Made by a program: the position numbers and the translations under genes
In this document: positions 515 through 42,557 of the stretch, in pieces
Layout: each line of letters begins with the position of its first letter
How positions within the stretch are numbered: position 1 is the first letter of the stretch
The notes under the pieces: model-generated
What the model was told of the DNA's origin: nothing
Seen by the model: the letters and a program-made list of their open reading frames with translations, nothing else
Databases searched by the model: none
Assembly (NCBI GenBank): GCA_017464025.1
Contig: JAFUEI010000024.1
Location: 13,070 to 77,069, forward strand
DNA length: 64,000 nt
Reading direction: 5' to 3'
Source: Paludibacteraceae bacterium
GTDB lineage: Bacteria; Bacteroidota; Bacteroidia; Bacteroidales; Paludibacteraceae

Positions 515-520
515 CCGCCC

Positions 521-584
521 GGAGAGCCCGGGGATTCCGGAGAGCCCGGAGATTCCGGGAAAAGCAGGGGAAGCAGGGGAAGCA
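521..584. repeat. Purine-rich tandem repeats: 18-mer x2, then 9/10-mer x3
   Basis: GGAGAGCCCGGGGATTCC (521-538) and GGAGAGCCCGGAGATTCC (539-556). These are followed by GGGAAAAGCA, GGGGAAGCA and GGGGAAGCA (557-584). Confidence 0.9.
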
Positions 585-743
585 GAAAAAACGGGACGGC
601 AGAGGGGACTCGGGAACAAGTTGTCCGGGTATTCTTATGTTATACAACATGTTTTAGGGAAGAGGCGGGGTAACGGACCGGTGCAATTTAACAAGCGGCG
701 GGGGAGAAAAGCGACCGGACGGTATCGGGTCGGGGTTCAAAGC

Positions 744-12892: not shown

Positions 12893-13032
12893 ACTGCGCA
12901 GGGCAGCCATACAGACATTCAACATTCAACACCCAACATAAATTAAACCAAGGCCTCGACGCCATTAAACCTAACCTTACTTAACCACCTCAAAACCCTT
13001 AACCACCTTAACTATCCCAACTCTTTTCTCCT
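12893..13032 (+). repeat. G-poor CA-rich inter-cistronic spacer (CATTCAACATTCAACA..., TTAACCACCT x2)
   Basis: The 140-nt mraZ-rsmH spacer is built from short C/A/T repeats. It is related to the spacers at 22179, 34948, 42495 and 55641. Confidence 0.7.
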
Positions 13033-16476: not shown

Positions 16477-17922
16477 ATGAAACTCAGCCAACTTCTTCAA
16501 GGTATTCAGGTGGAGCGTCTCATCGGCTCTACCGATATTGAGATTGCCGACCTTCAGTTCGACTCGCGCAAGGTGAAAGCAGGGAGCCTGTTCGTGGCCA
16601 CCCCGGGCACCGTTGTGGACGGACACAGCTTCATCGGGCAGTGTATAGCTGCCGGAGCCGCCGCTGTCGTATGCGAACGCCTGCCGGAGCAGACGGAGGG
16701 CGCCGCGTTTGTCGTCGTGAAGAATGCCGCCAAAACCCTCGGCGAACTGGCCGGACGCTGGTACGGCGATCCCTCCGCGCGGCTCACACTGGTGGGCGTG
16801 ACCGGCACCAACGGCAAGACCACCATCGCCACCCTGCTCTACAAACTGGTACGCGCCATGGACCATAAGGCCGGTCTGCTCTCGACGGTATGCAACTACA
16901 TCGAAGACGAGGCCGTTCCTTCCACTCACACCACACCCGATGCCTTGGAGCTGAACGGCCTGTTGGCAAGGATGGTGGAGGCCGGATGCGAATACTGCTT
17001 CATGGAGGTCTCGTCCCACTCAATAGCACAGGAGCGGATAGCGGGCCTCCAGTTTGACGGCGGCGTATTCACCAACCTGACGCGCGACCATATTGACTTC
17101 CACAAGACCTTCGACAACTACCGCGACACCAAGAAGCGCTTCTTCGACGAACTGCCGGCCACTGCCTTTGCCGTCACCAACAAAGACGACCGCAACGGGC
17201 TCGTCATGACGCAGAACACCAAGGCGAAAGTATATACCTACTCCACCCGCACCATGGCCGACTTCACTGCCAAAATCAAGGAAGAGGGCTTCGACGGCAT
17301 GCTGCTTGACATACAGGGTAGTCAAGACGTCTTCGTACCCTTGGTAGGCCGCTTCAACGTGAGCAACCTGCTCGCCATCTACGGCGCCGCCCTCTGTCTC
17401 GGCTTTGAGAAGGACGAAGTGCTGCGCGTGCTGAGCATGCTGCGTCCTGTCAACGGGCGTTTTGAGACCATCAGCAGTCCGAAAGGCTGGACCGCCATCG
17501 TTGACTACGCCCACACACCCGATGCGGTGGAGAACGTAATCAACACCATCAACGAGATACGCAAGCCGGGCACTACTCTGATAACCGTCGTCGGCTGCGG
17601 CGGCAACCGCGACAAGGGCAAACGACCCATGATGGCGCAACTGGCCAAGCGGGGCTCCGACCGGCTGATTCTCACAAGCGACAATCCGCGCGACGAAGAG
17701 CCGGCGGACATCCTGAACGACATGCTGGCCGGATTGACAGAAGAGGAACAACAGCAGACACTCGTCATCGAAGACCGACGTCAGGCGATACGTACGGCCT
17801 GCACCCTCGCCCGCAAAGACGATGTGATACTCATCGCCGGCAAGGGGCATGAAGACTACCAGATTATACGCGGCGTGAAGCACCACTTCGACGACCACGA
17901 AGAGGTGAGGGCGATGCTATAA
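16477..17922 (+). CDS. murE: UDP-N-acetylmuramoyl-L-alanyl-D-glutamate--2,6-diaminopimelate ligase
   Basis: MKLSQLLQG..., Mur ligase P-loop GVTGTNGKTT and DNPR motif (LTSDNPRDEEP). The ORF track start at GTG 16438 overlaps the ftsI stop and is an alternative. Confidence 0.93.
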   Translation: MKLSQLLQGIQVERLIGSTDIEIADLQFDSRKVKAGSLFVATPGTVVDGHSFIGQCIAAGAAAVVCERLPEQTEGAAFVVVKNAAKTLGELAGRWYGDPSARLTLVGVTGTNGKTTIATLLYKLVRAMDHKAGLLSTVCNYIEDEAVPSTHTTPDALELNGLLARMVEAGCEYCFMEVSSHSIAQERIAGLQFDGGVFTNLTRDHIDFHKTFDNYRDTKKRFFDELPATAFAVTNKDDRNGLVMTQNTKAKVYTYSTRTMADFTAKIKEEGFDGMLLDIQGSQDVFVPLVGRFNVSNLLAIYGAALCLGFEKDEVLRVLSMLRPVNGRFETISSPKGWTAIVDYAHTPDAVENVINTINEIRKPGTTLITVVGCGGNRDKGKRPMMAQLAKRGSDRLILTSDNPRDEEPADILNDMLAGLTEEEQQQTLVIEDRRQAIRTACTLARKDDVILIAGKGHEDYQIIRGVKHHFDDHEEVRAML

Positions 17923-17965
17923 CCCCATCCCGGCCCTCCCCACAGGAGAGGGGGAAAAGCAAGAA

Positions 17966-18063
17966 ACGATACGACATAATATAATACAATACGACATAAT
18001 ACAATATGACATAATACGACATAATACAACATAGCATAATACAACATAACACAATACGACACA
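17966..18063 (+). repeat. Degenerate tandem ACATAATAC-type repeats in the murE-mraY spacer
   Basis: ACGACATAATATAATACAATACGACATAATACAATATGACATAATACGACATAATACAACATAGCATAATACAACATAACACAATACGACACA runs directly up to the mraY ATG. Confidence 0.85.
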
Positions 18064-19338
18064 ATGATATACCATCTTTTTGATTATCTGCAATCTGTAT
18101 ATGGGCATTTCGCAGGTGCCAACCTGATGCAGTACATCAGTTTCCGCGCCATCATGGCCTTTGTCATCGCCTTACTTACCAGTATGTGGTTTGGCAAGTA
18201 CTTCATCGCCCTCCTGAAACGCAAGCACATCAGCGAGACACAGCGCGACGAGAAGACCGACCCCTTCAACACCAAGAAGGTAGGCGTTCCCACCATGGGC
18301 GGCATCGTTGTCATCGTGGCCATCCTGCTGGCCGTGCTGCTTGTAGGCCGGCTCAACAACGCCTATATGCTGCTCATGCTCGTCACCACGCTGCTGATGG
18401 GAGCGTTAGGCTTTGCCGACGACTATATCAAGACCTTCCGCCACAACAAAGACGGCCTGAACGGCTGGCTGAAGATAGCGGGTCAGGTGACACTCGGCCT
18501 CATCGTAGGCCTCACGCTGCGCTACTGCCCCGCGGCCGTGATGAACGAGAACGTGGAGGTGAAGATAGAGAACAACACGGAGATGGTCTATAAGACGCCC
18601 GACGTGAAGTCCACCCGGACCACCATTCCCTTCGTAAAGCACCACAACGCCAACTACGCCGACCTCTTCAGCTTCCTCGGCGAGCCGTGGAAATACAAGG
18701 CAGGCTGGATATTCTTCGTGCTGCTCATCGTCTTCGTCGTGGCGGCCGTGAGCAACGGAGCCAACCTGAACGACGGCATGGACGGTATGTGTGCCGGCAA
18801 CTCGGCCATCATAGGTGTAGCCCTGCTCGCGCTCGCCTACGTAAGCGGCTCCACCGTGTGGGCGGACTACTTCGACGTGATGTACATCCCCGGCAGCGAG
18901 GAGCTGGTTGTCTTCCTCGGAGCATTTGTGGGGGCCCTGATAGGCTACCTGTGGTACAACACCTATCCCGCACAGATATTCATGGGCGACACGGGCAGTC
19001 TGACATTAGGCGGCATCATAGGCGTATGCGCCTGCATCATCCACAAAGAACTGCTGGTACCCATCCTCTGCGGCGTGTTCCTGATGGAGAGCGTATCGGT
19101 CATCGTACAGACACAGGTCTATAAGTTCACCAAGCGCAAAGGCCATCCGGTGCGCGTATGGAAACGCACACCCGTACACGACCATTTCCGCACCGCACTC
19201 AGCCAAGTGGACCCCAACAGCCGCGTTTTCTTCAAAGGCAGCAGCGAACTGCAACATGAGAACAAAATCACACTGCGCTTCTGGCTCGTAAGCATCCTGT
19301 TGGCAGCATTCACCATACTCACGCTGAAAATCAGATAG
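18064..19338 (+). CDS. mraY: Phospho-N-acetylmuramoyl-pentapeptide transferase
   Basis: 424 aa, polytopic. Contains PTMGG, GFADDYIK and NLNDGMDG motifs. Confidence 0.95.
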   Translation: MIYHLFDYLQSVYGHFAGANLMQYISFRAIMAFVIALLTSMWFGKYFIALLKRKHISETQRDEKTDPFNTKKVGVPTMGGIVVIVAILLAVLLVGRLNNAYMLLMLVTTLLMGALGFADDYIKTFRHNKDGLNGWLKIAGQVTLGLIVGLTLRYCPAAVMNENVEVKIENNTEMVYKTPDVKSTRTTIPFVKHHNANYADLFSFLGEPWKYKAGWIFFVLLIVFVVAAVSNGANLNDGMDGMCAGNSAIIGVALLALAYVSGSTVWADYFDVMYIPGSEELVVFLGAFVGALIGYLWYNTYPAQIFMGDTGSLTLGGIIGVCACIIHKELLVPILCGVFLMESVSVIVQTQVYKFTKRKGHPVRVWKRTPVHDHFRTALSQVDPNSRVFFKGSSELQHENKITLRFWLVSILLAAFTILTLKIR

Positions 19339-19412
19339 AACCCCCGTAATACGAACGAAGCGGTGGTAATGGATACCGACAATGTTATCAACCATATAAA
19401 AAAGTATCTGCC

Positions 19413-20864
19413 ATGAACAGTCATACAACAGCCTCCCTCTCTTGTGGAGAGGGCAAAGGGAGAGGTTTCTTAGTGGTTCTTGGTGCCGGCGAGAGCGGCT
19501 GCGGAGCCGCCATACTGGGCAAGAAGCAAGGCTATGAGGTGTTCGTAAGCGACGCGGGCACCATCAAGCCCGTCTATAAAGCTCTGCTGGAGCAGCACGG
19601 CATCCCCTACGAAGAGGGCGGACACACCGAGGAGAAGATTCTCAGCGCCACAGAGGTAGTGAAGAGTCCCGGCATACCGGAAACGGCCCCCATCATTGAG
19701 AAAATCAAGCAGGTGAGGCGGGTAGAGAAGCAGCCTGAACGACTGAAGCTGCCTAATATGTTAGACGGCGACATGCGCTATACAGGCATCCCCGTCATCT
19801 CGGAGATAGAGTTCGCCTGCCGCTATACCAAGGCCAAGATGCTCTGCATCACGGGCAGCAACGGCAAGACAACCACCACCAGCCTGCTCTTCGACATGCT
19901 CGTACGCGCCGGACTGAACGTAGGCCTCGCAGGCAACATCGGCAACTCGCTCGCACTGCAGGTGGCCGAAACCGAGCGTGACTACTATGTCATCGAACTC
20001 TCCTCCTTCCAGTTGGACAACATGTACGACTTCAAGGCCGACATCGCCATCCTGATGAACATCACGCCCGACCATCTGGACCGCTACGACTTCTGCTTCC
20101 AGAACTACGTGGATGCAAAGCTGCGCATCACGCGCAACCAGACCCCGGCCGATGCGTTCGTCTATTGGAGCGAAGACCCCGTCATCGACCGCGAGCTGAA
20201 GAAACTGCGCCCTGCCGCCACACTCTACCCCTTCGGCAGCAGCAAGCAGCACAACGTGGCCTATATTGACGGAGGCAATCTGGTGATAGAAGCCCCTAAT
20301 GCGATGGCACTCACCCTGCCGGCGGCCGACCTCTCGCTGCGCGGCCGCCACAACCAGCTCAACTCCATGGCCGCCGGTCTGGCCGCCCAGATTCTGCATA
20401 TCAAGAACGACGTCATCCGCGAGAGTCTCATGCAGTTCCGCGGCGTGGACCACCGCCTGCAGTATGTAGCCACCGTGCGCGGCGTGCGCTTCATCAACGA
20501 CTCGAAGGCCACCAACGTCAACTCCTGCTGGTATGCCTTGGAGAGCATGAACACCCCCACCGTGCTCATCCTCGGCGGCAAGGACAAAGGCAACGACTAC
20601 AGCGAAATCGACGAACTGGTGCGCCAAAAATGCCATACCCTCGTCTATATGGGCCTGCATAACGAGAAGCTGCACGAGCACTTCGACGGCATGGGGCTGC
20701 GCATCATCGACACCGACAACATCGTTGATGCCGTCCGCCGGGCCTACGAAGCCGCACGCGAGGGCGACACCGTACTGCTCTCGCCCTGCTGCGCATCGTT
20801 CGACCTCTTCAAGAGCTACGAAGACCGCGGCGAGCAGTTTATGCAACAAGTGAAACAGCTGTAG
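19413..20864 (+). CDS. murD: UDP-N-acetylmuramoylalanine--D-glutamate ligase
   Basis: VVLGAGESG Rossmann start and ITGSNGKTTT P-loop. The first 20 codons are a translated GC palindrome, so an in-frame GTG at 19473 is a plausible true start. Confidence 0.93.
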   Translation: MNSHTTASLSCGEGKGRGFLVVLGAGESGCGAAILGKKQGYEVFVSDAGTIKPVYKALLEQHGIPYEEGGHTEEKILSATEVVKSPGIPETAPIIEKIKQVRRVEKQPERLKLPNMLDGDMRYTGIPVISEIEFACRYTKAKMLCITGSNGKTTTTSLLFDMLVRAGLNVGLAGNIGNSLALQVAETERDYYVIELSSFQLDNMYDFKADIAILMNITPDHLDRYDFCFQNYVDAKLRITRNQTPADAFVYWSEDPVIDRELKKLRPAATLYPFGSSKQHNVAYIDGGNLVIEAPNAMALTLPAADLSLRGRHNQLNSMAAGLAAQILHIKNDVIRESLMQFRGVDHRLQYVATVRGVRFINDSKATNVNSCWYALESMNTPTVLILGGKDKGNDYSEIDELVRQKCHTLVYMGLHNEKLHEHFDGMGLRIIDTDNIVDAVRRAYEAAREGDTVLLSPCCASFDLFKSYEDRGEQFMQQVKQL

Positions 20865-20915
20865 CCCTTCCGCCAAGCCGGATGCGGCGATACGCCTCCA
20901 AAAAACGACCGCCTT

Positions 20916-22178
20916 ATGCCTACCCCCTTCGAATCCGTCAAGTTCAACCGCCAGCATGTGGACCGCACCTTTTGGGTGATTTTCCTCATCCTCGTGGGGG
21001 TGTCTGTTCTGGCCCTGTTCTCCAGCAGCAGTACGCTCATCCACAAAGCTACGGCACAAGGTCACAACCCCATCTACCCCATCGCCATGCAGATCCTGTA
21101 TGTGGGCATCGGTGTGGGGATTGCGTGGGTCCTGCAGTTTCTGCCGAGCTGGGTATATCGCCTCTTCGGCTATGTGCTGTTGGGCCTCGGCATGCTGTTT
21201 CTGCTGCTCAATGCCGCCCACATAGGCGTCACCATCAACGGCGCCACGCGCTGGGTGCGCATCGCCGGCATCACCATCCAGTCGTCGGAGTTGGCCAAGG
21301 TAGGACTCATCATCGTGGTCACGCACCTGCTTTCGCAAATCAAGGACAGCGAGTCGGAGCGCCGCAACTTCCTCTGGGCGCTGGGTCTGACGGGCGTGAC
21401 CTGCCTGCTCATCATGATAGGCAACCTCAGTACCGCCATCCTGCTCGGGGCCGTGATTATCCTGCTGATGATTCTCGCGCGCATACCCTGGAAGTGGTGG
21501 ACCGGCATCATCGTGGCGGCCGCCCTCTTCCTCGTCATAGGCTATCTCTTCGTGGAATACGCTTACGTGCGTCCCGGACGCGAGATGAAAGGGCCTCTCA
21601 GCAGAGCCCAGACGTGGGTGAACCGTATTGACAGGAAGCTCGAGGAGCACAGCGAAGAGGGCGATGCCTACAAGATAACCGACGACAACTATCAGGCAAT
21701 GCTGGCCCGCGTGGCCGTTGCCATGGGAGGCAAGAGTCCGATAGGCGTGTTGCCCGGCAACTCGCTTGAGCGCGACCACCTGCCGCTTGCCAACGCCGAC
21801 TACATCTTCGCCATCATCGTCGAGGAGACCGGCTTCGTAGGAGCTTTGCTGCTCTGTTTTCTCTACCTGAGCGTACTGTTCCGCTGTTGCTATGCCAGTT
21901 CGCGCTACAACGACTACGCCGCACAGCTGATGATGATGGGGCTCGGCTTGATGCTCACCTTGCAGGCGCTTGTCTCGATGGCCGTAGCCGTCGGACTCGG
22001 ACCCGTCACCGGTCAGCCGTTGCCTCTCATCTCGAAGGGCGGCACCAGCGCCATCATCACCAGTATCTACTTCGGCATGATGATGGGTGTCAGCCGCGAG
22101 CAGAACCAGAAGAAGGCCCAGCAGGAGCAGACTATTGAGGAGAGCATGCAGGAAGTCCCCGAACTCAACACCGACTAA
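20916..22178 (+). CDS. ftsW: FtsW/RodA (SEDS) family peptidoglycan glycosyltransferase
   Basis: 420 aa with about 10 TM segments. SEDS motifs are present (IQSSELAKV, DYIFAIIVEETGFVG, GQPLPLISKGGTS). Confidence 0.9.
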   Translation: MPTPFESVKFNRQHVDRTFWVIFLILVGVSVLALFSSSSTLIHKATAQGHNPIYPIAMQILYVGIGVGIAWVLQFLPSWVYRLFGYVLLGLGMLFLLLNAAHIGVTINGATRWVRIAGITIQSSELAKVGLIIVVTHLLSQIKDSESERRNFLWALGLTGVTCLLIMIGNLSTAILLGAVIILLMILARIPWKWWTGIIVAAALFLVIGYLFVEYAYVRPGREMKGPLSRAQTWVNRIDRKLEEHSEEGDAYKITDDNYQAMLARVAVAMGGKSPIGVLPGNSLERDHLPLANADYIFAIIVEETGFVGALLLCFLYLSVLFRCCYASSRYNDYAAQLMMMGLGLMLTLQALVSMAVAVGLGPVTGQPLPLISKGGTSAIITSIYFGMMMGVSREQNQKKAQQEQTIEESMQEVPELNTD

Positions 22179-22233
22179 CACCAGTTCCACAATTCAACAA
22201 ATCAACAATTCCTCAAATCCTCAATTCCCCAAT
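22179..22233 (+). repeat. G-depleted CA-rich spacer (CAGTTCCACAATTCAACAAATCAACAATTCC...)
   Basis: This 55-nt ftsW-murG spacer contains a single G. It shares the CAGTTCCACA and TTCAACAATTCA units with 34948-35002, 42495-42557 and 55641-55687. Confidence 0.8.
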
Positions 22234-23352
22234 ATGAACTACCTGATTTCCGGAGGCGGAACAGGGGGACATATCTTCCCCGCCGTCAGTATCGCCAACG
22301 CTTTGCGTGAGCTGCAGCCCGACTGCAAGATTTTGTTTGTAGGCGCCCTCGGCCGCATGGAGATGGAGCGTGTACCCCAGGCCGGCTACGAGATTGTAGG
22401 CCTGCCTGTACGCGGCTTCAACCGCAAGAACCTGCTGGCCAATGCGTCCGTACTGTGGGACCTCATGCGTTCGATGCGCATGGCGCGCAAGATTGTCAAA
22501 CGCTTCAAGCCCGATGTGGCGGTCGGCGTAGGCGGCTATGCCAGCGGTGCCGCCATGAAGGTGGCCGCCCGCATGGGGGTGCCCGTGCTGCTGCAGGAGC
22601 AGAACGGCTTTGCCGGCGTGACCAACAAACTGCTCAAAGACGATGCCGCTAAGATATGCGTCGCCTACGAAGGCATGGAACGCTTCTTCCCCAAGGAGAA
22701 AATCATCCTCACCGGCAACCCTGTGCGGCAGAATCTCGAAGGCGGCAGCCGTGAGGAGGCGGTACGTCTCTTCGGATTGGCCCCCGAGAAGAAGACCCTG
22801 CTCATCATCGGCGGTTCGCTCGGCGCACGCACCATCAACGAGAGCCTTATCGCCTCTCTTGACAAGCTCAGCGAAGCCGGCATCAACGTTATCTGGCAGA
22901 CCGGCAAGACCTACTACGACCGTTGCCGCGAGGCGCTGCAGGCCGCCGGCGATGCCGTTGTAAGCGACGACAGCGTACGCCTCGGCAACATCCGCTGCAC
23001 CGCCTTCCTCAGCCGCATGGACCTGGCCTATGCCGCCGCCGACCTTGTGGTGTCACGGGCAGGGGCAAGCAGCATCTCCGAGTTGTGTCTGTTAGGCAAG
23101 CCCTGTATTCTCGTGCCCTCACCCAACGTGGCAGAAGACCATCAGACCCACAACGCGATGGCGTTGGTAAGAAAAGAGGCCGCCGTGCTCGTGAAAGACG
23201 TTGAGGCCGGCGAACGGCTCATACCGGAAACGCTCACCCTTATAGCCGACGACGCGCATCTCACCGCCCTTAGCCGCAACATCCTCACGCTTGCGCAGCG
23301 CGACTCGGCCCGCCGCATCGCCCAGGAAGTGATTGCCCTCGCACAGCGATAG
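22234..23352 (+). CDS. murG: UDP-GlcNAc:lipid I N-acetylglucosaminyltransferase MurG
   Basis: MNYLISGGGTGGHIFPAVSIANAL. The ORF track start at 22087 overlaps ftsW and is rejected. Confidence 0.93.
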   Translation: MNYLISGGGTGGHIFPAVSIANALRELQPDCKILFVGALGRMEMERVPQAGYEIVGLPVRGFNRKNLLANASVLWDLMRSMRMARKIVKRFKPDVAVGVGGYASGAAMKVAARMGVPVLLQEQNGFAGVTNKLLKDDAAKICVAYEGMERFFPKEKIILTGNPVRQNLEGGSREEAVRLFGLAPEKKTLLIIGGSLGARTINESLIASLDKLSEAGINVIWQTGKTYYDRCREALQAAGDAVVSDDSVRLGNIRCTAFLSRMDLAYAAADLVVSRAGASSISELCLLGKPCILVPSPNVAEDHQTHNAMALVRKEAAVLVKDVEAGERLIPETLTLIADDAHLTALSRNILTLAQRDSARRIAQEVIALAQR

Positions 23353-23376
23353 AGCGGCAGCAATAGAGTCTCAAAG

Positions 23377-23397
23377 GTCTATAGAATCCATAGACTC
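23377..23397. repeat. Left arm of the 21-bp perfect inverted repeat
   Basis: GTCTATAGAATCCATAGACTC, embedded in tandem CATAGAMTC-like units (about 23372-23430). Confidence 0.95.
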
Positions 23398-23470
23398 CAT
23401 AGAATCTATATAATTCATAGACCCTATAGCAATAATCGATTCCTCTAACCCCGACAACTCTACCACCAAT

Positions 23471-24010
23471 ATGTCCTTTCTCAACCGTCACAACTACAAG
23501 CAACTGGTTTTCTATAAGAAAGCACTCTGTCTGTATGACATCACCTATTCTTTTACAAATCGCTATCTAACTCAAGACAAACGCACTACAGATCAGATGA
23601 TACAAGCAGCCCGCTCAGGAAAACAAAATATTATCGAAGGGACAGAAGCCGGTATGACCTCTGCTGAAACAGAGTTGAAACTACTTAATGTAGCTCGGGC
23701 CAGTCTGCTGGAGTTATTGGCTGACTATGAAGACTATTTGCGTGTGCGTCAGTTGTCTATATGGGGAAACACTCATCCGCGTTATGCTAACCTGCATCAT
23801 TTCTGCTGCACGCATACGGAACTGGCAGATTACACCACCCTACTTCACCGTATGGAGGATGAAGAGATTGCCAATATGGCTATAACCCTCATTCATCAAG
23901 CTGACAGCGGTCTTATAAAGTTTATCCATTGGCAGGAGCAACAATTTCTCGATAAGGGGGGCATCCGTGAAAACATGTCGAAGGCCCGCCGCGAACAGAG
24001 AGGCTATTAA
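23471..24010 (+). CDS. Four-helix-bundle protein (23S rRNA intervening-sequence protein / Avd family) with suffix domain
   Basis: 179 aa. YKQLVFYKKALCLYDITYSFTNRY...TTDQMIQAARSGKQNIIEG...LLNVARASLLELLADYEDYL fits the family pattern (Y.KL.V.QKA......IY..T..FP......L..Q..RAA.S...NI.EG...F...A.GS..E). Confidence 0.7.
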   Translation: MSFLNRHNYKQLVFYKKALCLYDITYSFTNRYLTQDKRTTDQMIQAARSGKQNIIEGTEAGMTSAETELKLLNVARASLLELLADYEDYLRVRQLSIWGNTHPRYANLHHFCCTHTELADYTTLLHRMEDEEIANMAITLIHQADSGLIKFIHWQEQQFLDKGGIRENMSKARREQRGY

Positions 24011-24046
24011 GCTGCCATTATTGGTTGAAAGTTATAGAGTCCTATC

Positions 24047-24067
24047 GAGTCTATGGATTCTATAGAC
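24047..24067. repeat. Right arm of the 21-bp perfect inverted repeat
   Basis: GAGTCTATGGATTCTATAGAC is the exact reverse complement of 23377-23397. Confidence 0.95.
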
Positions 24068-24134
24068 ACTTATAGATACAAACAAATATACAGCATTCAC
24101 ACCAGCCCCTATTTTTACTCTCTTTTTTGTCAAT

Positions 24135-24171
24135 AATTACACATGCGCGTCCGCGCAGGTGTGTAATTTTG
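24135..24171 (+). terminator. Hairpin plus T-run, overlapping a -7-like box TAATTTTG (24164-24171)
   Basis: AATTACAC pairs with GTGTAATT (8 bp) and TGCGC pairs with GCGCA (5 bp), followed by TTTTG. It could be a terminator for the cassette gene, a promoter/operator for 24323, or both. Confidence 0.4.
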
Positions 24172-24291
24172 CAGCGTCAAAAGAAGGGCTTGTCCGGCGG
24201 ATTGTCCAGGCCGTCCGCCAACGGAGCGCGTAACAGCCCGTTAACCAAAGCAAACACAAAACAATCAACCCAATAACAATCTTTATTAACC

Positions 24292-24305
24292 GTGCCGAAA
24301 GGCAC
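24292..24305 (+). promoter_or_regulatory. GNRA-tetraloop hairpin in the leader of the 24323 gene
   Basis: GTGCC-GAAA-GGCAC lies 17 nt before the ATG. Confidence 0.35.
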
Positions 24306-24322
24306 ACAAAACCAACAAACAC

Positions 24323-25897
24323 ATGAAAAAAATGAAACTTTTTGCTCTTGCCTTCGCAGCAATGTTCGGCATGAGCGCAACGGCAGAAACCTACAAATTT
24401 GTCACAGACGATGTTGTAGCAAACAATTTCACGGCTGCAAGCAACAAGGAAGATGTCACCCTTACGTCTAATGATAAAACTTGCGGGGAGACAATGCCGG
24501 CACTCAACATTACCATGCCGACAAAAGGCACGGAATATAGTCTGACTACAAAAGACAGCTTCAACGAGATTAGTGCCATTACTATAAACTTGGGCAGTTC
24601 CGATCGCGGAAAAACTTATTTTGGTATTCAGATTTGCGCCAAAGCGGACTTTTCGGAAGGTGTAACAACTATCGAAGATATTACAAATACTATTACCGCT
24701 ACACTCAAAGCAAAAACTGGTGCTGAAGGTGGTAATAAAAAACTTTATGAACTGACTTATAACCTTGAGAAGGCAGCAAACGGTTATGTACGCTTTATTT
24801 GCCAATCGGCTTCGGGTTCATCCAATAAATCCGTTTACTATGGCGATATTGAAATCAAAGGTTCAAAAGGCATTCCTACAACTCCTACCTTATTGTCTTA
24901 CAAAATAAACAATGTTTTGGCTACTATTGATGAGAGTACAAAAACCATCTCTGCAGAATTTCCTTATGGTACGACTCTTGACTATGACAATGCTGTTGTA
25001 ACTACCGGTGGTACTGCTACCGGCTGGAGCTACAATGCGGAAAAGACCAAACTGACCGTAACCGATGGCACCAACAATCTTGAGTTCACGCTGAACATCA
25101 CCGTTGCCGGTCCTTCTACCGAGAGCGACCTGCTGGAGGTTGTTATGTCGAACGGCACCAAGGCTTTCATTGTAAACCACGACTCCGTTCTGACCGCTAC
25201 CGCCGTTTACATGAAGGGCGAAAGCGTACCGACCGTTAGCAAAACCACTGTTTCGGAGAACGCCAATGCAGCAGTAGAAGGCAACGTCATCACGGTAACC
25301 GCTCAGGACGGCACCACGAAGACCCCCTTCACCCTCAAAGTCGTAGAGTATGAGCCGCTGGCTACTTTCACTTCCGGCACCGCCATCGTGTTCGACACCA
25401 CCATCGTCACCAATCCTAACACCTATCTGGCCAGCGTTTACGGCTGGGACAGCAGCAAGGGTATCAAGTGGGCTAAGCCGCAGAACGATGCCTCCAACAT
25501 GCGTATCCAGGAAGGCAAGAACCGCATTTATCTCTTCCTCCCCGCTTGCGACTCCGTTATGTTTGTCGGCGGTAGCGGCGGTGCCCGTGACGTAGAGGTT
25601 ACGCTGAATGGTGCGGTATATGCCGACGTGAAGAAAACGCCTGCCAAGGACGCTACCATCACTATCAAACTCAACAGCACAACCAACAACTTGCTTGGCT
25701 TCGAGTCGAACGGTTCGGCCAACGGCGACTCCGGCTTCACTTCCATGACTCTCTACAAGGGTGGCCAGCCGACCGGCATTGACGCTATCGAAGTGCTTGA
25801 TATGAACGCTCCGATGTTCAACCTCATGGGCCAGCAGGTAACAGCTGACTACAAGGGCATCGTTATCCAGAACGGAGCTAAATATCTCCTCAAATAA
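24323..25897 (+). CDS. Secreted protein of unknown function with T9SS C-terminal sorting domain
   Basis: 524 aa with signal peptide MKKMKLFALAFAAMFGMSATA. The C-terminal tail MFNLMGQQVTADYKGIVIQNGAKYLLK is CTD-like. The 5' half is visibly AT-rich and the 3' half is GC-rich. Confidence 0.75.
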   Translation: MKKMKLFALAFAAMFGMSATAETYKFVTDDVVANNFTAASNKEDVTLTSNDKTCGETMPALNITMPTKGTEYSLTTKDSFNEISAITINLGSSDRGKTYFGIQICAKADFSEGVTTIEDITNTITATLKAKTGAEGGNKKLYELTYNLEKAANGYVRFICQSASGSSNKSVYYGDIEIKGSKGIPTTPTLLSYKINNVLATIDESTKTISAEFPYGTTLDYDNAVVTTGGTATGWSYNAEKTKLTVTDGTNNLEFTLNITVAGPSTESDLLEVVMSNGTKAFIVNHDSVLTATAVYMKGESVPTVSKTTVSENANAAVEGNVITVTAQDGTTKTPFTLKVVEYEPLATFTSGTAIVFDTTIVTNPNTYLASVYGWDSSKGIKWAKPQNDASNMRIQEGKNRIYLFLPACDSVMFVGGSGGARDVEVTLNGAVYADVKKTPAKDATITIKLNSTTNNLLGFESNGSANGDSGFTSMTLYKGGQPTGIDAIEVLDMNAPMFNLMGQQVTADYKGIVIQNGAKYLLK

Positions 25898-25928
25898 GAC
25901 GACCCTCTTTAGAGGCTATTAAAACAAC

Positions 25929-25968
25929 GCAGAGGCAAGGACGACGGTCCTTGTCTCTGCTGTTTGTT
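25929..25968 (+). terminator. Rho-independent terminator after the T9SS cargo gene
   Basis: GCAGAGGCAAGGAC-GACG-GTCCTTGTCTCTGC (one mismatch) followed by TGTTTGTT. Confidence 0.6.
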
Positions 25969-25992
25969 CCGTCCTTGTCTCTGCTGTTTGTT
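25947..25992 (+). repeat. Direct duplication of the terminator 3' arm plus T-tract (22 nt x2)
   Basis: GTCCTTGTCTCTGCTGTTTGTT occurs at 25947-25968 and 25971-25992, separated by CC. Confidence 0.9.
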
Positions 25993-26009
25993 TCCGCCCG
26001 AAACGGCAT

Positions 26010-26040
26010 TTTGCCATATCAGGAATAATTCGTATCTTTG
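26010..26040 (+). promoter_or_regulatory. Promoter (-33 TTTG / -7 TATCTTTG)
   Basis: TTTG at 26010-26013 and TATCTTTG at 26033-26040, with a 19-nt spacer. It is the only promoter-like site seen between 25993 and the mlaE/protease array. Confidence 0.55.
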
Positions 26041-26064
26041 CGGCGTTAAATATGCGAAACTGCT

Positions 26065-26178
26065 ATGACGGCTATTGCTTACAACACATTAGAAGAAAAA
26101 CGTATGGCATGGGAGCAAATGCTGAAGCAGCGCGAAGTGTGGGAGCAGCACATTGAAAGAACAAAACAAGAAAAGTAA
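26065..26178 (+). CDS. Hypothetical 37-aa ORF (TAATG-coupled to the next ORF)
   Basis: Translation: MTAIAYNTLEEKRMAWEQMLKQREVWEQHIERTKQEK. The stop TAA 26176-26178 shares its last A with the ATG at 26178. Confidence 0.15.
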   Translation: MTAIAYNTLEEKRMAWEQMLKQREVWEQHIERTKQEK

Positions 26179-26429
26179 TGCTCTGTCTGTCAGCAGAACG
26201 AATAAACACCAAAGCGCCATACAAAGTAAGTAATATTGACGATTGTTCTGTTACTTTCTCCACTGCCGATGGCATCGGGTATGATGTAGGCTTTACTAAG
26301 GACATTTTCATCTTTGATGAAGGTGCCTATTTTTGCTTTATCAGTAATCACGAAACACCCTCACATTCAGATATAAAAATCTTCCAAACCATTGCCGCCG
26401 TTTTTGAGGATTTCTTAACTGACATATAA
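26178..26429 (+). CDS. Hypothetical 83-aa protein, possibly a truncated DUF6169-like remnant
   Basis: AT-rich ORF. SVTFSTADGIGYDVGFTKD...YFCFISNHETPSHSDIKIFQTIAAVFEDFL loosely fits a small Bacteroidetes family recalled from memory. It ends 5 nt before mlaE. Confidence 0.4.
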   Translation: MLCLSAERINTKAPYKVSNIDDCSVTFSTADGIGYDVGFTKDIFIFDEGAYFCFISNHETPSHSDIKIFQTIAAVFEDFLTDI

Positions 26430-26434
26430 CCTAC

Positions 26435-27178
26435 ATGAAGAAACTATTCCAAGACATAGGCGAGTATGTGCTGCTGATGATGCGGGTGTTCCGCATGCCT
26501 GACCGGCAGCGCATGTTCTGGCGCCAGCTCTCTCACGAGTTGGACAAGCAGGGCACACAGTCGGTGCCTATCGACCTGATTATCTCTATCTTCATCGGCG
26601 CCATCATGACGATGCAGATCAAGCTCGACATGGCCAACCCCCTGCTGCCGCGCTACACCGTCGGCGTCGTCACGCGCGACACGATGCTGTTAGAGTTCAG
26701 TTCCACCATCCTCTGCCTCATCCTTGCGGGCAAGGTGGGCAGCAACATCGCCTCCGAGATAGGCACCATGCGCATCACCGAACAGATTGATGCCATGGAG
26801 ATAATGGGTGTGAACTCCGCCAACTACCTGATTCTTCCAAAGATAGTGGCCTTCATGGCGATGATGCCTATTCTGGTTATCTTCTCTGTAGGCTCCGCAC
26901 TGATAGGCGGCTACATGATGGCATTGCTGACCGACATCCTCACCGTGGATGAATACGTATATGGCATCACCTATGCGTTCATGACGTACCACGTGCCGTA
27001 TGCCATCGTCAAATCGGTGATTTACGCCTATGTGATAACGAGCGTCAGTGCCTACTACGGCTACACCACCCGCGGCGGTGCCCTGGAGGTGGGCAAAGCC
27101 AGTACGAATGCCGTTGTCAACTCCAGCGTCATCATTCTGTTCCTCGACATCTTCCTCACCAAACTCATGCTTAGCTAA
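26435..27178 (+). CDS. mlaE: MlaE-family ABC transporter permease
   Basis: 247 aa with TM-rich MlaE-like motifs (EIGTMRITEQIDAMEIMGVN). Confidence 0.88.
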   Translation: MKKLFQDIGEYVLLMMRVFRMPDRQRMFWRQLSHELDKQGTQSVPIDLIISIFIGAIMTMQIKLDMANPLLPRYTVGVVTRDTMLLEFSSTILCLILAGKVGSNIASEIGTMRITEQIDAMEIMGVNSANYLILPKIVAFMAMMPILVIFSVGSALIGGYMMALLTDILTVDEYVYGITYAFMTYHVPYAIVKSVIYAYVITSVSAYYGYTTRGGALEVGKASTNAVVNSSVIILFLDIFLTKLMLS

Positions 27179-27180
27179 TT

Positions 27181-27957
27181 ATGATTAACGTAAAGAATGT
27201 TCATAAGAGTTTTGACGGGCATGTGGTGTTAGACAACATCAGCGTGGACATGCACGACGGCCAGTGCAACATGATCATAGGTCAGTCCGGTTCGGGCAAA
27301 ACGGTGCTCATGAAGTCCATCATCGGCCTGCACACCATCGACTCCGGCCGCATCGAATACGACGGGCGCAACCTGCCCGACATGACCGAGAAAGAGGTCC
27401 GTCTGCTCCGGCGGGAAGTGGGCATGCTGTTTCAGGGAGCGGCGCTGTTTGACAGCCAGTCGGTGTTGGAGAACGTGATGTTCCCGCTTGAGATGTGGGC
27501 CAGCATGACGCGCAAAGAGATGGAAGAACGCGCCAAGTTCTGCCTCGGCCGCGTGAACATACAGGACGTGGCATGGAATTTGAGCCCTGCCGAGATAAGC
27601 GGCGGCATGCAGAAGCGCGTAGCCATTGCGCGGGCCATCTCAATGAACCCCAAATACCTCTTCTGCGACGAGCCCAATTCAGGCCTCGACCCAAAGACCA
27701 GCCTTGTCATAGACCAGTTGATACATGAAATCACAGAAGAGTTCAATATCTGCACCGTCATCAACTCGCACGACATGAACAGCATCATGGAGATAGGCGA
27801 CAACATCGTCTTCCTCAAGGAAGGCGTCATGCGCTGGAACGGCAGCCGCCACGAGATCTTCGATGCGGAGAGCCGCGACCTGCAAGACTTCGTCTTCGCC
27901 AGCGAACTCTTCAAGAAAGTACGGGCGGCCCACAAGAGCGAACGCCCTGCAGACTAA
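27181..27957 (+). CDS. mlaF: ABC transporter ATP-binding protein (MlaF-like)
   Basis: Walker A GQSGSGKT, signature ISGGMQKRVAIARA and Walker B LFCDEP. Confidence 0.88.
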   Translation: MINVKNVHKSFDGHVVLDNISVDMHDGQCNMIIGQSGSGKTVLMKSIIGLHTIDSGRIEYDGRNLPDMTEKEVRLLRREVGMLFQGAALFDSQSVLENVMFPLEMWASMTRKEMEERAKFCLGRVNIQDVAWNLSPAEISGGMQKRVAIARAISMNPKYLFCDEPNSGLDPKTSLVIDQLIHEITEEFNICTVINSHDMNSIMEIGDNIVFLKEGVMRWNGSRHEIFDAESRDLQDFVFASELFKKVRAAHKSERPAD

Positions 27958-27985
27958 CGAGAAACAACCCAAACAATCGGATATA

Positions 27986-28327
27986 ATGAAAAAGATCCTT
28001 CTCATCCTCTTTGCGGCGGCATGCTGCCTGACCGGCACCTATGCACAGCAGCCGCGCCGCGGCGTACCGGCTACGCCGCACCCCATACAATACGTGCAAC
28101 CCGACGGCGACACACTGGTATATCGCCTGCACGGTGACGAGCGCATGCACTTCCAGACTACGCTTGACGGCTACCTCATCAAGCAAAACAAGCGCGGCAA
28201 GTTCTGCTACGCCCGCTACAACAGGAAAGGTGCCATCAAGACCTACTGCAAGCAGGCACATAACAAAGAACAGCGCTCGGCCAGAGAGCAGCGCTGGGTG
28301 GAGAGAAAAGGCGTAAAGAAATACTAA
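27986..28327 (+). CDS. Small secreted protein: stand-alone copy of the N-terminal module of the M6-like peptidases
   Basis: Signal peptide MKKILLILFAAACCLTGTYA. PHPIQYVQPDGDTLVYRLHGDERMHFQTTLDGYLI parallels QYTQPDGSRLTIFVHGDETYHYTTDAEGNLL (28341 gene) and MADGTEKVLYLHGDETFHYYTDAEGN (33217 gene). It has no catalytic domain. Confidence 0.6.
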   Translation: MKKILLILFAAACCLTGTYAQQPRRGVPATPHPIQYVQPDGDTLVYRLHGDERMHFQTTLDGYLIKQNKRGKFCYARYNRKGAIKTYCKQAHNKEQRSAREQRWVERKGVKKY

Positions 28328-28340
28328 CGTTCAGCATATC

Positions 28341-31300
28341 ATGAACAGCAATACTATGATACACATGAAGAAATCACTCCTCATGGCCGCTATGCTGCTG
28401 CTGACAGCAGCCACGGCAATGGCTGTTCCGGCCAAGCCGGGACCCAGACAGTACACGCAGCCCGACGGAAGCAGGCTGACCATTTTCGTACATGGCGACG
28501 AGACGTATCACTACACCACCGATGCAGAAGGCAACCTGCTGACTCTCAATGAAGACGGTTGGTACGTCAACAGCGGTGCACAGCCCACCGGAGCCGGCAT
28601 AGCCGCCCGCCGCGCGGCGGGGCGCATTCAGCGTCCTAACCGTCCACGGCGCGTGGGCAGCGTGAACCTCGCACCGCGCGGACTCTTCATCCTCGTCAAC
28701 TTCAGCGACTCAAAGTACAAGAGCAGCAATTCGCTCAGCGAAATGGAGAAGATGCTCAACCAGAAAGGCTACAACTACAACGGTGCTCCGGGCTCGGTGA
28801 AAGACTATTTCCTCGAGCAGTCGGGCGGACAATACAACCCGCAATTTGACGTGTACGGGCCCGTCACGCTGAGCCATCCGGCTTCTTATTACGGACAGAA
28901 CACCAGCCGCGAAGACGGGTCTGACAAGCAGCCTGAGCTGATGGTGATAGAAGCCTGCCAGGCCCTTGACAGCCAGATTGACTTCACACTCTACGACGGC
29001 GACAAGGACGGCGAGATCGACTTTGTATATTGCATCTATGCCGGCAAGGGCGAAGCCGACGGTGGCGCCGCCAGCACAATATGGCCGCACCAGTGGTTTA
29101 TCAAAGACGGAGCCGGCAAATACATCCGCTTGGACGGCAAGTATCTCAACAACTACGCCTGCGGTCCCGAACTGAACGGCACCTCGGGTGAAAGAAACGG
29201 CATCGGCACGCTGTGCCACGAGTTCGGGCACGTGCTCGGACTGCCCGACTATTACGACACCAACTACGGCTCCAACTACGAAAACGGTCTCACGCCCGGC
29301 GACTGGTCTATCATGGATGCCGGCTCCTACAACAACGACGGCGTGACCCCGCCCAACTGGTCGATATACGACAAGTTCTACGTAGGCTGGTACACGCCTG
29401 CCGTCATGAACACGGCGGAAGACATCACGCTTGCCGCCGACGGCAAGACCGGCCGCTATGTCACGGCCGGCGGCAAGACCGTCAGCCCCACCACCGAGGG
29501 CGTGGCCTACTATTTCGAGAACCGCCAGCAGACCAAAGGCACATGGGACGAATATCTGCCCGGACACGGCCTCATCGTATGGCGCGTGAACTACAGCCAG
29601 AGCGTATGGGAAGAGAACGCGCCGAACGACCAGACCGGCACCACCCGCTATACCGTTGTGTCGGCCACCGGCAGCACGAAGAAGATAGGCAAAGCCTCCG
29701 ACCCCTTCCCCGGCACCGGAAAGGTGACAACCTACACCCCCGTCAGCGGCTATCCGCTCACGCAAATCACCGAGACGGGCGGCGTGATTACTTTTAAGAT
29801 GAAGGGCGGCGTTGTGCTCCACACTGTCACCTTCGACTATGGCAAGGGGACAGGCTCTCCCGCCTCGCTCAAAGAGACGCAGTCGGGCACCGGCATCACG
29901 CTTCCCGCCGCCACTGCCCCTGCCGGTTTCAGTTTTGAGGGCTGGAGCACGCAGAACGGCAGCCTTGTACCTGATGCCGGAAAGGCCGGCGATATGTACC
30001 TGCCGAAAGCCGATATCACGCTCTACGCCGTGTATATGGACGAGACGAAGGTGCTGCTCTCTTACGAGACCGAAGGTCTGGTCCTCACCAGCGGACCCCA
30101 GGCCGGACAGATAGAGAAAGGGCAACCCTTCACGGCTGTGTTCCGTGCCGCGGAGTGCTATGAGACCCTTGCGGCCGACACCTATCTGGCCGAGGTCATC
30201 TCCGGCACGACCGAACTGACCGATAGCGTTGTCAGCGTGGCCGACGGCCTGCTGAGCGTCAGCCTCACAGCGAAGCAGACGATGGCGAATGTCAGCATCA
30301 CTATCTACAACCAGCAGAAGCCGGTGGTAAAGACGCAGTTGAGCCATGCCGTATTCAGCGGAGCCGACTGTGCGGAACGCGGTGCCGCCTACACGGCCAC
30401 CCTGACTCCCGAGACGGGATGGCTGCTGGAAAAAGACGACATACAGGTTACGATGGACAATGGCGGAGAGACAACCTTCAGCTATACCGACAACACTCTC
30501 ACTGTCAATGCCGTCAGCGCCAGCCTTACGATTACGGCCACCGCCCGCCGCGATATTCCGTCGGGCACGCTCACTGTTGCGCAGGCACTGGCCATCATTG
30601 AGACCCTGCAGGAAGGCGAAGAGACCGACTACAGCGTCACCCTGCAAGGCTACATCACTGAGATACAGGAAGACTATACGGTACGCTACAAGAACGCGAC
30701 CTTCCGCATCGGCGACACCAAGGATGCTACCACGACGCTGCTGCTCTACCGCACCAAGCCCGTCAACACGTCCGACCAGACCTTCAGCACGGGCGACCAG
30801 GTGAGCGCTACCGGCGTACTCTACAAATACGTCAACAAGAGCGGAACCGTCATCCCTGAGACGGCGGCAGGCGGCACCTATACCATCTTGACCGACAATC
30901 CCGACAACCCCGATAATCCCGATAACCCTGACAATCCGGCCACGGCATGCGATGACTACAGCTACACCATGAGCAAGCAGAGCTATGCCGGCACCGGCAC
31001 CGGCATCGTCTATGGCGACTACGACTGGGAAGTAGCCGTCACTAACTTCGCCCACCTGCAATACGACACACAGAGCGACCGCGGCATGCAGTACGGAAGC
31101 AATTCCAATCCTGCCCAAAAGGTCAGCTTCACTACCTCGGAGACGGCCTCCTGTCTGATTCGAAAGGTCAGCGTCACAGCCCAGATGGCCAGCAGCGGCG
31201 ATGCCCAACTGGCCGTATATGTGAACGGTACGCAGATAGGCACGACGCAGAACCTCAGCACCACCTCCAAAGAATACACCTTCAGCCCTGCCACCCCGGT

Positions 31301-31613
31301 GAAGGGCAGTCTGGAGATACGCCTCACCAACAGCAAGAAGGCAATGTATATCAAGAGCATCGGCATCTCGTATAGTGCCACGCCCACCGCTCTTGACACG
31401 CCTGAAGACGTCTGCATCAGCACGGATGGCAACCTGCTCACGGTAGCGGGTCTGAAGCCGAACACGACTGTCAGCATCTACGACCTGAGCGGACGTCTCC
31501 GCCTGCAGGCTATGGCTGACGATGTGTTTGCCGCATCGCTGCCCGAAGGCATGTACGTGATATGCATGGAGCTGGCGGGACACCGGACTACCCGCAAACT
31601 GATAATCCGCTAA
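28341..31613 (+). CDS. M6-like zinc metallopeptidase, multidomain, T9SS cargo
   Basis: 1090 aa with zinc motif HEFGHVLGLPDYY. It has a Listeria-Bacteroides (Flg_new-like) repeat HTVTFDYGKGTG...GFSFEGWST...ITLYAVY and a (DNP)5 linker. CTD tail: VSIYDLSGRLRLQ...YVICMEL...RKLIIR. The likely start is the ATG at 28365 (MKKSLLMAAMLLL). Confidence 0.88.
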   Translation: MNSNTMIHMKKSLLMAAMLLLTAATAMAVPAKPGPRQYTQPDGSRLTIFVHGDETYHYTTDAEGNLLTLNEDGWYVNSGAQPTGAGIAARRAAGRIQRPNRPRRVGSVNLAPRGLFILVNFSDSKYKSSNSLSEMEKMLNQKGYNYNGAPGSVKDYFLEQSGGQYNPQFDVYGPVTLSHPASYYGQNTSREDGSDKQPELMVIEACQALDSQIDFTLYDGDKDGEIDFVYCIYAGKGEADGGAASTIWPHQWFIKDGAGKYIRLDGKYLNNYACGPELNGTSGERNGIGTLCHEFGHVLGLPDYYDTNYGSNYENGLTPGDWSIMDAGSYNNDGVTPPNWSIYDKFYVGWYTPAVMNTAEDITLAADGKTGRYVTAGGKTVSPTTEGVAYYFENRQQTKGTWDEYLPGHGLIVWRVNYSQSVWEENAPNDQTGTTRYTVVSATGSTKKIGKASDPFPGTGKVTTYTPVSGYPLTQITETGGVITFKMKGGVVLHTVTFDYGKGTGSPASLKETQSGTGITLPAATAPAGFSFEGWSTQNGSLVPDAGKAGDMYLPKADITLYAVYMDETKVLLSYETEGLVLTSGPQAGQIEKGQPFTAVFRAAECYETLAADTYLAEVISGTTELTDSVVSVADGLLSVSLTAKQTMANVSITIYNQQKPVVKTQLSHAVFSGADCAERGAAYTATLTPETGWLLEKDDIQVTMDNGGETTFSYTDNTLTVNAVSASLTITATARRDIPSGTLTVAQALAIIETLQEGEETDYSVTLQGYITEIQEDYTVRYKNATFRIGDTKDATTTLLLYRTKPVNTSDQTFSTGDQVSATGVLYKYVNKSGTVIPETAAGGTYTILTDNPDNPDNPDNPDNPATACDDYSYTMSKQSYAGTGTGIVYGDYDWEVAVTNFAHLQYDTQSDRGMQYGSNSNPAQKVSFTTSETASCLIRKVSVTAQMASSGDAQLAVYVNGTQIGTTQNLSTTSKEYTFSPATPVKGSLEIRLTNSKKAMYIKSIGISYSATPTALDTPEDVCISTDGNLLTVAGLKPNTTVSIYDLSGRLRLQAMADDVFAASLPEGMYVICMELAGHRTTRKLIIR
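30894..30938 (+). repeat. Five 9-nt units encoding a (DNP)5 linker
   Basis: GACAATCCC GACAACCCC GATAATCCC GATAACCCT GACAATCCG. The differences are synonymous wobble changes. Confidence 0.9.
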
Positions 31614-33188: not shown

Positions 33189-33216
33189 CACACAGTCAAT
33201 AACACAAATAACCGAT

Positions 33217-34947: not shown

Positions 34948-35002
34948 CCGCCTCCTCGGTTCAACAATTCAACAGTTCCACACTTCATCAGTTCCACATG
35001 AA
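34948..35002 (+). repeat. G-poor CA-rich spacer (TTCAACAATTCAACAGTTCCACACTTCATCAGTTCCACA)
   Basis: Same unit family as 22179-22233. It lies directly upstream of the xth ATG. Confidence 0.8.
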
Positions 35003-42494: not shown

Positions 42495-42557
42495 ACAACT
42501 CTCCAATTTATCAATTCACCAGTTCCACAAATCATCAATTCCACAATTCCCCCTCCC
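42495..42557 (+). repeat. G-poor CA-rich spacer (TCAATTCACCAGTTCCACAAATCATCAATTCCACAATTCCCCC)
   Basis: Same unit family as 22179-22233. It ends in TTCCCCCTCCC immediately before the TTG start. Confidence 0.8.

Follow-up and report, generated by a model that had tools for sequence, protein, structure and literature searches.

A four-helix-bundle protein gene flanked by arrays of 9-nt units downstream of murG in a Paludibacteraceae bacterium

Downstream of murG, on the same strand, in a 64,000-nt stretch of a Paludibacteraceae bacterium genome (assembly GCA_017464025.1, contig JAFUEI010000024.1, positions 13,070 to 77,069; hereafter the window), lies an open reading frame (ORF) of 179 aa that is enclosed by a perfect inverted repeat. 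ORFs of the same four-helix-bundle family are found inside intervening sequences (IVSs) of 23S rRNA, and the locus raises the question of what such a gene and its repeats do at the end of the division and cell wall (dcw) operon. According to the original prediction, the locus could be a mobile IVS-like cassette and, if transcribed with the operon, could also act as an RNase III processing module that ends the dcw transcript. The results of this computational study point to a different feature as the one that characterises the family, namely arrays of 9-nt units beside the gene, whose core sequence follows the clade of the encoded protein.

The inverted repeat was found as predicted. GTCTATAGAATCCATAGACTC at 23377-23397 has its exact reverse complement at 24047-24067, the two enclosing 649 bp. 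A search of the window that allowed up to three mismatches retrieved these two and no others, where shuffled sequences gave an expectation of 0.01. A repeat finder extended the arms to 26 nt at 96% (Table 1). The claim that the arms are built from repeated units also held: Tandem Repeats Finder (TRF) reported a period of 9 at 23381-23421 (4.6 copies) and 24033-24063 (3.3 copies), the unit being a 5-nt core (ATAGA/TCTAT) followed by a 4-nt variable spacer. Upstream of the ORF, ATAG[AC] cores stand in an exact 9-nt register at 23363, 23381, 23390, 23399, 23408 (degenerate, ATATA), 23417, and 23426. The 21-bp inverted repeat is not a simple palindrome but merely the stretch over which the forward array upstream and the reverse array downstream agree most closely, helped by the palindromic TCTATAGA. 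The AT-rich cassette as a whole extends from ca. 23360 to 24080. When metagenomes were searched for four consecutive ATAGA units, 120 matches were obtained, most of them unrelated repeats, and three adjoined a four-helix-bundle gene; the array pattern alone is therefore not diagnostic.

By profile matches and predicted fold, the ORF is assigned to the four-helix-bundle family (23S-rRNA-IVS-protein/Avd fold), in agreement with the original prediction. Residues 130-177 matched TIGR04258 ("four helix bundle suffix domain") with 63.6 bits (cut-off 40), and TIGR02436 was matched with 29.0 bits (cut-off 24), while the match to PF05635 (23S_rRNA_IVP) covered residues 10-83 alone and at 28.5 bits remained under the gathering score of 33.8. 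An AlphaFold2 (AF2) model built on 29 homologs had a predicted local distance difference test (pLDDT) score of 89.6. Its top PDB matches in Foldseek were 2GSC (Xcc0516; template modelling score TMt 0.84) and 2RLD (BT_0352; TMt 0.76), both with a probability of 1.00, and a profile search of PDB sequences likewise retrieved 2GSC with the NIAEG motif aligned. Across the 29 homologs, at 50-60% identity, 46 columns are invariant, including DRTxDQMxQAARSGKQNIxEG. The S23p family has the signature motif GxxRxxxSxxxNxxE (PMC3936711), of which S49, N53, and E56 are invariant in the 29 homologs; the R position is occupied by Q45 (R48 lies nearby) and the G position by Q42. The ORF was rightly described as AT-rich, its GC content being 0.45 versus 0.59 in the dcw block.

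The subfamily comprises 2586 clusters at 50% identity and at least ca. 8000 clusters at 90% identity; its named members are nearly all from Bacteroidales, and database relatives are titled "four helix bundle suffix domain-containing protein". The nearest database matches share 62% identity with the window protein, and the protein of locus L002 (P0012) shares 59%. Many subfamily genes sit on contigs of ca. 0.9-1.1 kb, and many database ORFs are longer by 50-100 residues at the N terminus or end in repetitive tails (e.g. P0106, ...QTSQTCQTSPIGLTCQTS), plausibly because the arrays break assemblies and are read through by gene callers. A phage or defence link was dropped, as PADLOC, PHROG, and phage tblastn gave no match and IMG/VR gave one. 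Kinship with HEPN proteins was also considered, and no claim is made of it since a HEPN survey does not mention this family.

We compared 80 homolog loci from species-representative genomes, together with 10 strain variants of the P0012 locus. The flanks of the homolog loci showed strong autocorrelation at lags of 9, 18, and 27 nt, limited to ca. 150 nt on either side of the gene, and at least one 9-nt array adjoined the gene in 55 of 79 non-redundant loci. It is in this form, as arrays, that the arms are conserved with homologous genes. A period-9 array was present in 31% of the intergenic gaps beside the gene, as compared to 1.5% of the other gaps in the same loci, and other periods were not enriched. 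The unit differs by locus (e.g. GGGCATAAT, GTCGGACTG, AATCTAGAA, and GGCCTATAA); once a rotation and a strand have been chosen for each, a weak core common to the units emerges, C-C-Y-A-K (5.66 bits versus 4.06 ± 0.11 in shuffles), and the units are enriched in TAG and CTAG. Mismatches clustered by unit position in 19 of 50 arrays (P < 0.05; 2.5 expected): five positions are conserved and four vary. The P0012 locus displays this organisation most plainly in its upstream stop-to-ATG spacer, whose length of 180 or 252 nt corresponds to exactly 20 or 28 9-nt units and in which ATAGC (left part) or GCTAT (right part) alone is conserved, the 4-nt spacers being variable and often non-complementary. 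Downstream of the gene, the module of forward array, centre, and reverse array is repeated. Between P0012 strains that encode the same protein, the number of units varies by 8, 3, or 1.

The core was found to co-vary with the protein. Cores group by protein clade, with TCGGA, CCGGA, and CTAG(A) each in a clade and CCCAT, CCTAT, or AATTAG in sub-clades of another, and ATAG[AC] is common to the window and L002. Protein distance and unit distance were correlated (Mantel r = 0.33), a value reached in 0 of 2000 permutations. Among non-syntenic pairs, in which the flanking 4 kb are dissimilar, the unit distance was 2.28 at protein distances below 0.3 versus 4.2-4.5 for distant proteins. ATAGA arrays flank the gene on either side at L083 and likewise at an independent metagenome locus that encodes a protein 90% identical to the L083 protein, and a single metagenome-assembled genome holds two cassettes (L069 and L086) that belong to different clades and have different cores. 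This co-variation across unrelated neighbourhoods argues that the gene and its arrays travel together, and they appear to be inherited and disseminated as one cassette that recurs across Bacteroidales. Since the core persists between proteins so divergent that neutral DNA would have reached saturation, we infer that the array cores are under selection. An origin of the arrays by amplification of 9-bp target-site duplications, taken from the insertion site, was considered and rejected, given that in unrelated neighbourhoods the core still goes with the clade of the protein.

Based on these results, we tentatively propose that the arrays may be cis-sites owned by the cassette, that is, cognate binding sites of the encoded oligomeric protein, and that the inverted layout at this locus also permits an IVS-like stem. 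One protomer per 9-nt unit would bind the arrays, either on the transcript or on DNA, and such putative binding could serve autoregulation, transcript protection, or the cassette's own propagation. Inverted arrays would also let the transcript form a long stem that encloses the ORF, the layout of rRNA IVSs. The oligomeric state of family members counts in favour of an oligomer on an array: Xcc0516 is given as a homopentamer of four-helix bundles in PMC4990558, which cites Lin et al. 2006 on this point. Two further points in favour, both described below, are a short-form PF05635 gene with an equivalent layout of 6/12-nt units and the variable heptamers beside the ORF of the Coxiella IVS. A further step, which we regard as doubtful, would be to see in the sequence-specific oligomeric nucleic-acid-binding protein and its own arrays a self-contained, selfish unit whose many specificities (TCGGA, CCGGA, CTAG, CCCAT, ATAG, and others) are orthogonal to one another and which spreads into operon tails and is a free-living relative of ORF-bearing rRNA IVSs and of Avd in diversity-generating retroelements (DGRs). 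If true, the arrays would provide the first cognate ligand for a family that has been annotated "function unknown" for 30 years.

Several observations weigh against the proposal that the protein binds its own arrays. The window protein has a net charge of 0 and the median isoelectric point of the subfamily is 8.6, so that it is not markedly basic; ca. 30% of the 79 loci lack an array by the criteria used; and the orientation and order of the arrays vary between loci, with no single binding geometry evident. Position-specific variation can also come from higher-order repeats (18 or 27 nt), and common descent with slow concerted evolution of the arrays could also produce the co-variation. As for the spread of the cassette, its mobility is deduced from its distribution alone. 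Searches of the window and of JGI metagenomes retrieved no further copy of the arms, no recombinase is among the genes identified within 10 kb, and the eight same-species contig records include no strain-level empty site, empty sites being seen at the genus level only.

Those genus-level empty sites define the slot that the cassette occupies. In the window, the dcw block begins with mraZ (12431) and contains rsmH, ftsI, murE, mraY, murD, and ftsW before it ends with murG. It closes with murG likewise in three related genera (L094, L095, and L097; MurG ca. 77% identical), where the four-helix-bundle gene is absent after murG. L095 is otherwise syntenic with the window (murG, a surface-protein gene, MlaE, and MlaF). 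In the window, a hairpin and TAATTTTG lie beyond the cassette; a hairpin with TAATTTTGCA also follows murG in the cassette-free L094 (ca. 6235-6270) and L095 (ca. 6136-6175), with stem sequences that differ by compensatory change. The -7 promoter consensus of Bacteroidetes is TAnnTTTG, and TAATTTTG fits it. Promoters were scanned by this motif, a sigma-70 promoter/terminator scan being unsuited to Bacteroidetes, and the window contained 31 matches versus 19 expected. On the + strand there was none between 12403, just before mraZ, and 24164. The hairpin and TAATTTTG are probably the native dcw terminator plus the promoter of the following variable surface-protein gene. The cassette is an AT-rich insert between the murG stop codon and this native hairpin/promoter, and it has no promoter motif of its own. 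Its mRNA therefore most probably arises by read-through as the last cistron of the dcw operon, and a foreign cistron would ride on an essential transcript. Since the downstream hairpin is kept in cassette-free relatives, the dcw transcript can end without the cassette, and this part of the original prediction was not upheld. Among the homolog loci, the gene shares its orientation with the upstream neighbour in 67 of 80, and a TAnnTTTG motif of its own was found in only 24 of 82 (3.5 expected); where this motif precedes the arrays, as at some loci, they belong to the 5' untranslated region and are transcribed.

Table 1. Positions of the features discussed, numbered from the first nucleotide of the window.
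Feature	Position	Strand	Details
Orphan array	515..585	+	CCCGGAGAG CCCGGGGAT TCCGGAGAG CCCGGAGAT TCCGGGAAA, then AAGCAGGGG x2.7; core class CCGGA
murG, last dcw gene, 372-aa product	22234..23352	+	TIGR01133 at 277.9 bits
Upstream array	23363..23430	+	7 cores ATAGA/ATAGC + 4-nt spacer in 9-nt register, one degenerate (ATATA); TRF period 9
Left arm of inverted repeat	23377..23402	+	21 nt perfect, 26 nt at 96%
Leader, array to start codon	23431..23470	+	G-poor; no TAnnTTTG promoter motif
Four-helix-bundle protein gene with suffix domain, 179 aa	23471..24010	+	TIGR04258, TIGR02436, AF2 fold
Downstream array	24029..24076	+	Reverse cores (C/T)CTAT at 24041, 24050, 24059 in register; forward ATAGA at 24034, 24062, 24072
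Right arm of inverted repeat	24042..24067	-	Repeat finder
TATATTTG, candidate antisense promoter into the cassette, possibly chance	24083..24090	-	TAnnTTTG-type match just outside the right arm
Conserved hairpin overlapping and then TAATTTTG	24135..24171	+	-18.8 kcal/mol, z = -3.0; 3' limit of insertion slot

The genes within 10 kb of the cassette are the dcw genes, MlaEF, M6 proteases, and xth, with the surface-protein gene next after the cassette. Downstream of MlaEF, three successive M6-family metalloprotease paralogs occupy 28341-34947, the first with a type IX secretion system sorting domain. The window also contains a separate class of repeats, 8-nt-unit arrays of TTCCACAA, GTTCAACA, and TTCAACAG, at 22185-22233, 34959-34998, 42512-42550, and 55641-55683 (TRF); those at 22185-22233 (before murG) and 55641-55683 (before an ORF at 55688) lie in short G-poor leaders preceding start codons. 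Spacers within the dcw block are tandem-repetitive too: the murE-mraY spacer (17956-18085) has ATAATACRAC-type units of 10, 15, or 25 nt, and the mraZ-rsmH spacer (12915-13012) has ACATTCA x3.6 and CTTAACCAC x3.7.

An alternative that we consider unlikely is an IVS-like RNA processing module in which the stem formed by the inverted arrays is essential. RNase III would cut this stem and free the ORF RNA from the dcw mRNA, and the 9-nt units would merely build the stem. The long stem anticipated by the original prediction was indeed recovered by folding: in the minimum free energy structure of the 761-nt region, the flanks pair with each other over ca. 60 nt per side, and both arms joined via a tetraloop reached -56.4 kcal/mol (z = -8.0), versus -19.9 and -18.7 for the local hairpins of the single flanks. 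RNase III needs roughly two helical turns, and the 21 perfect base pairs come near this requirement. In the IVS of Coxiella, a homologous ORF lies inside a 28-bp terminal stem cut by RNase III, with variable heptamer repeats just before the ORF (PMC4990558). The promoter motif upstream of the arrays at several loci is a further point in favour, as the arrays are then transcribed. However, while an ORF inside a predicted long stem is what this locus shows, it is not a trait of the family. A significant inverted repeat across the gene was detected in 23 of 75 loci only, so that the conserved feature of the family is the arrays and not the long stem. Several loci have direct arrays only; arrays of the same orientation flank the gene in L013, L055, and L090, and a forward-plus-reverse module stands on each side in L032 and L082. 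The spacers within units are often non-complementary, and arm mismatches showed no sense-strand excess of G-U pairs (68 G-U versus 152 A-C overall), a count so dominated by a few long arrays that the wobble test is uninformative rather than negative. In the array nearest the start codon, the C-rich core is on the sense strand in 19 versus 4 cases. A stem also leaves the conserved 5-nt core and the fixed period of 9 unexplained, and a separate hairpin already stands downstream of the cassette. No Rfam family was matched anywhere in the window, the cassette lies outside rRNA, and none of 17 related loci has an rRNA context. At L021, a Bacteroidales-1 (6S-like) RNA gene (2248-2482, - strand) lies ca. 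1.5 kb upstream of a cassette, which is probably a coincidence.

It is improbable, in our estimate, that the cassette is a non-autonomous mobile element, with the four-helix-bundle gene as passenger or accessory factor and the arrays as terminal or subterminal repeats on which an enzyme from another locus (a recombinase or transposase) acts. Mobility of some kind, which the original prediction had put forward, gains indirect support from the array flanks in unrelated neighbourhoods, where they travel with the gene and the motif follows the clade, from the absence of the gene after murG in the related genera, and from the foreign base composition. An orphan 9-nt array at the beginning of the window, right after the stop codon of an M16-peptidase-like ORF, has no four-helix-bundle gene alongside, and its CCGGA core is the class of another protein clade (L085, L026, and L064); possibly this array is a cassette flank that stands alone or was left behind. 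L103-L110 are versions of a Prevotella polysaccharide operon in which the slots between GT1 and the ABC2 permease and between the permease and the ATPase vary in content between strains, holding DUF3791/DUF3990 with an 83-aa ORF, an ORF6N gene, or a short 126-aa PF05635 gene. The last of these has TTAACY repeats upstream and GTTAATGTTATC repeats downstream, in a forward/reverse layout with a period of 6/12 and variable copy number. The content of these slots is replaced and not precisely deleted. L105 also carries three tandem copies of a ca. 130-190-nt element between GT1 and the permease.

Against this alternative, direct reading of the sequence outside the arms (CTCAAAG before, ACTTATA after) gave no target-site duplication, and the lack of a nearby recombinase and of a second arm copy, noted above, bears on this alternative as well. 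The copy and empty-site searches thus yielded empty sites between genera and none between strains. The cassette is present in the same orientation in all eight same-species contig records (some perhaps one contig retrieved twice), and the 372-aa MurG was found identical on same-species contigs. Seven aligned cassette copies are almost invariant, with one single-nucleotide polymorphism (SNP) in the 540-nt ORF and two linked SNPs in ca. 60 nt of the upstream array. The linked G/T SNPs, at 23411 and 23420 (versus L001 and L100-L102), shift the degenerate ATATA core from unit 4 to unit 5, which suggests unit exchange or conversion and not two independent mutations. Moreover, an enzyme acting in trans is not expected to switch its specificity along with the clade of a passenger protein.

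Still less probable is the view that the arrays are neutral, slippage-prone microsatellites beside a horizontally acquired gene and that the inverted repeat has no function. The changes of copy number between strains in steps of 9 agree with it, as does the excess of SNPs in the array of the window species over its ORF. In contrast, period 9 alone is enriched (20-fold), and only in the gaps beside this gene; the core is kept where neutral DNA would be saturated, conservation is position-specific, and a core is common across loci. Bacteroidales are rich in invertible DNA switches, and a perfect 21-bp inverted repeat around a 649-bp segment would suit one flipped by a site-specific recombinase; this is very improbable, as one orientation only was seen in the eight same-species records and in all 10 distinct places shown for the P0012 gene relative to its neighbours (24 contigs), no recombinase is nearby, and many family members have direct arrays. 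That the locus is a remnant or part of a DGR, with the ORF as Avd, has hardly any probability, the shared fold family (PMC10053308) notwithstanding: as the original prediction had noted, there is no reverse transcriptase among the genes identified within 10 kb and no template/variable repeat pair, or any long direct repeat, within the 14 kb from 17000 to 31000.

Among known systems, ORF-bearing IVSs of 23S rRNA (Coxiella and Leptospira) come closest to the window cassette, having a homologous four-helix-bundle ORF inside stem-capable terminal inverted repeats. The Coxiella IVS is also alike in its strain-variable short tandem repeats by the ORF (heptamers; PMC4990558), and AT-richness and a foreign look are shared features too. 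The window cassette differs in lying outside rRNA and in having flanks that are arrays of a 9-nt core plus spacer instead of a plain stem, and its protein differs from the IVS protein in carrying an insertion and the TIGR04258 suffix and in being strongly conserved, not decaying. The cassette suggests an origin for ORF-bearing rRNA IVSs. Xcc0516 (2GSC) and BT_0352 (2RLD) are the best fold matches and share the SxxxNxxE part of the signature; they have ca. 110-128 residues as compared to 179 here, are 16-19% identical to the window protein, and lack its helical insert (residues 93-129) and C-terminal suffix helix. The family is further represented in cas loci (PMC3936711) and, by Avd, in DGRs, so that Avd shares a superfamily with the window protein (PMC10053308); no reverse transcriptase, template, or variable repeat was found near the cassette.

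Avd is a nucleic-acid-binding pentamer. The 23S-rRNA-IVS-protein/Avd family is very large and has no known function besides the role of Avd in DGRs; the co-varying array motif offers a concrete candidate ligand for it, in the form of cognate versus non-cognate arrays. TRAP reads (G/U)AG repeats, and ParR or Rep proteins read iterons. These serve as analogies only: there, as here, a core with a variable spacer recurs at a fixed period beside the gene of a small oligomeric protein, and in the cassette the core co-varies with the protein. There is no homology to them, and the period, the presence of arrays in both orientations, and the site at the tail of a chromosomal operon are different. Miniature inverted-repeat transposable elements, repetitive extragenic palindromic elements, and the invertons of Bacteroidales resemble the window element in having inverted repeats around a short intergenic segment, and they differ from it in that the window element has a conserved protein gene and periodic arms, with no target-site duplication, identical copies, or inversion seen. 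The searchable literature, outside which many subscription papers lie, yielded no account of an architecture of nonamer arrays or of arrays that co-vary with the protein. The TIGR04258 subfamily, which is catalogued, and IVSs consisting of an ORF in a stem were already known, and the nonamer arrays and their co-variation with the protein are apparently new.

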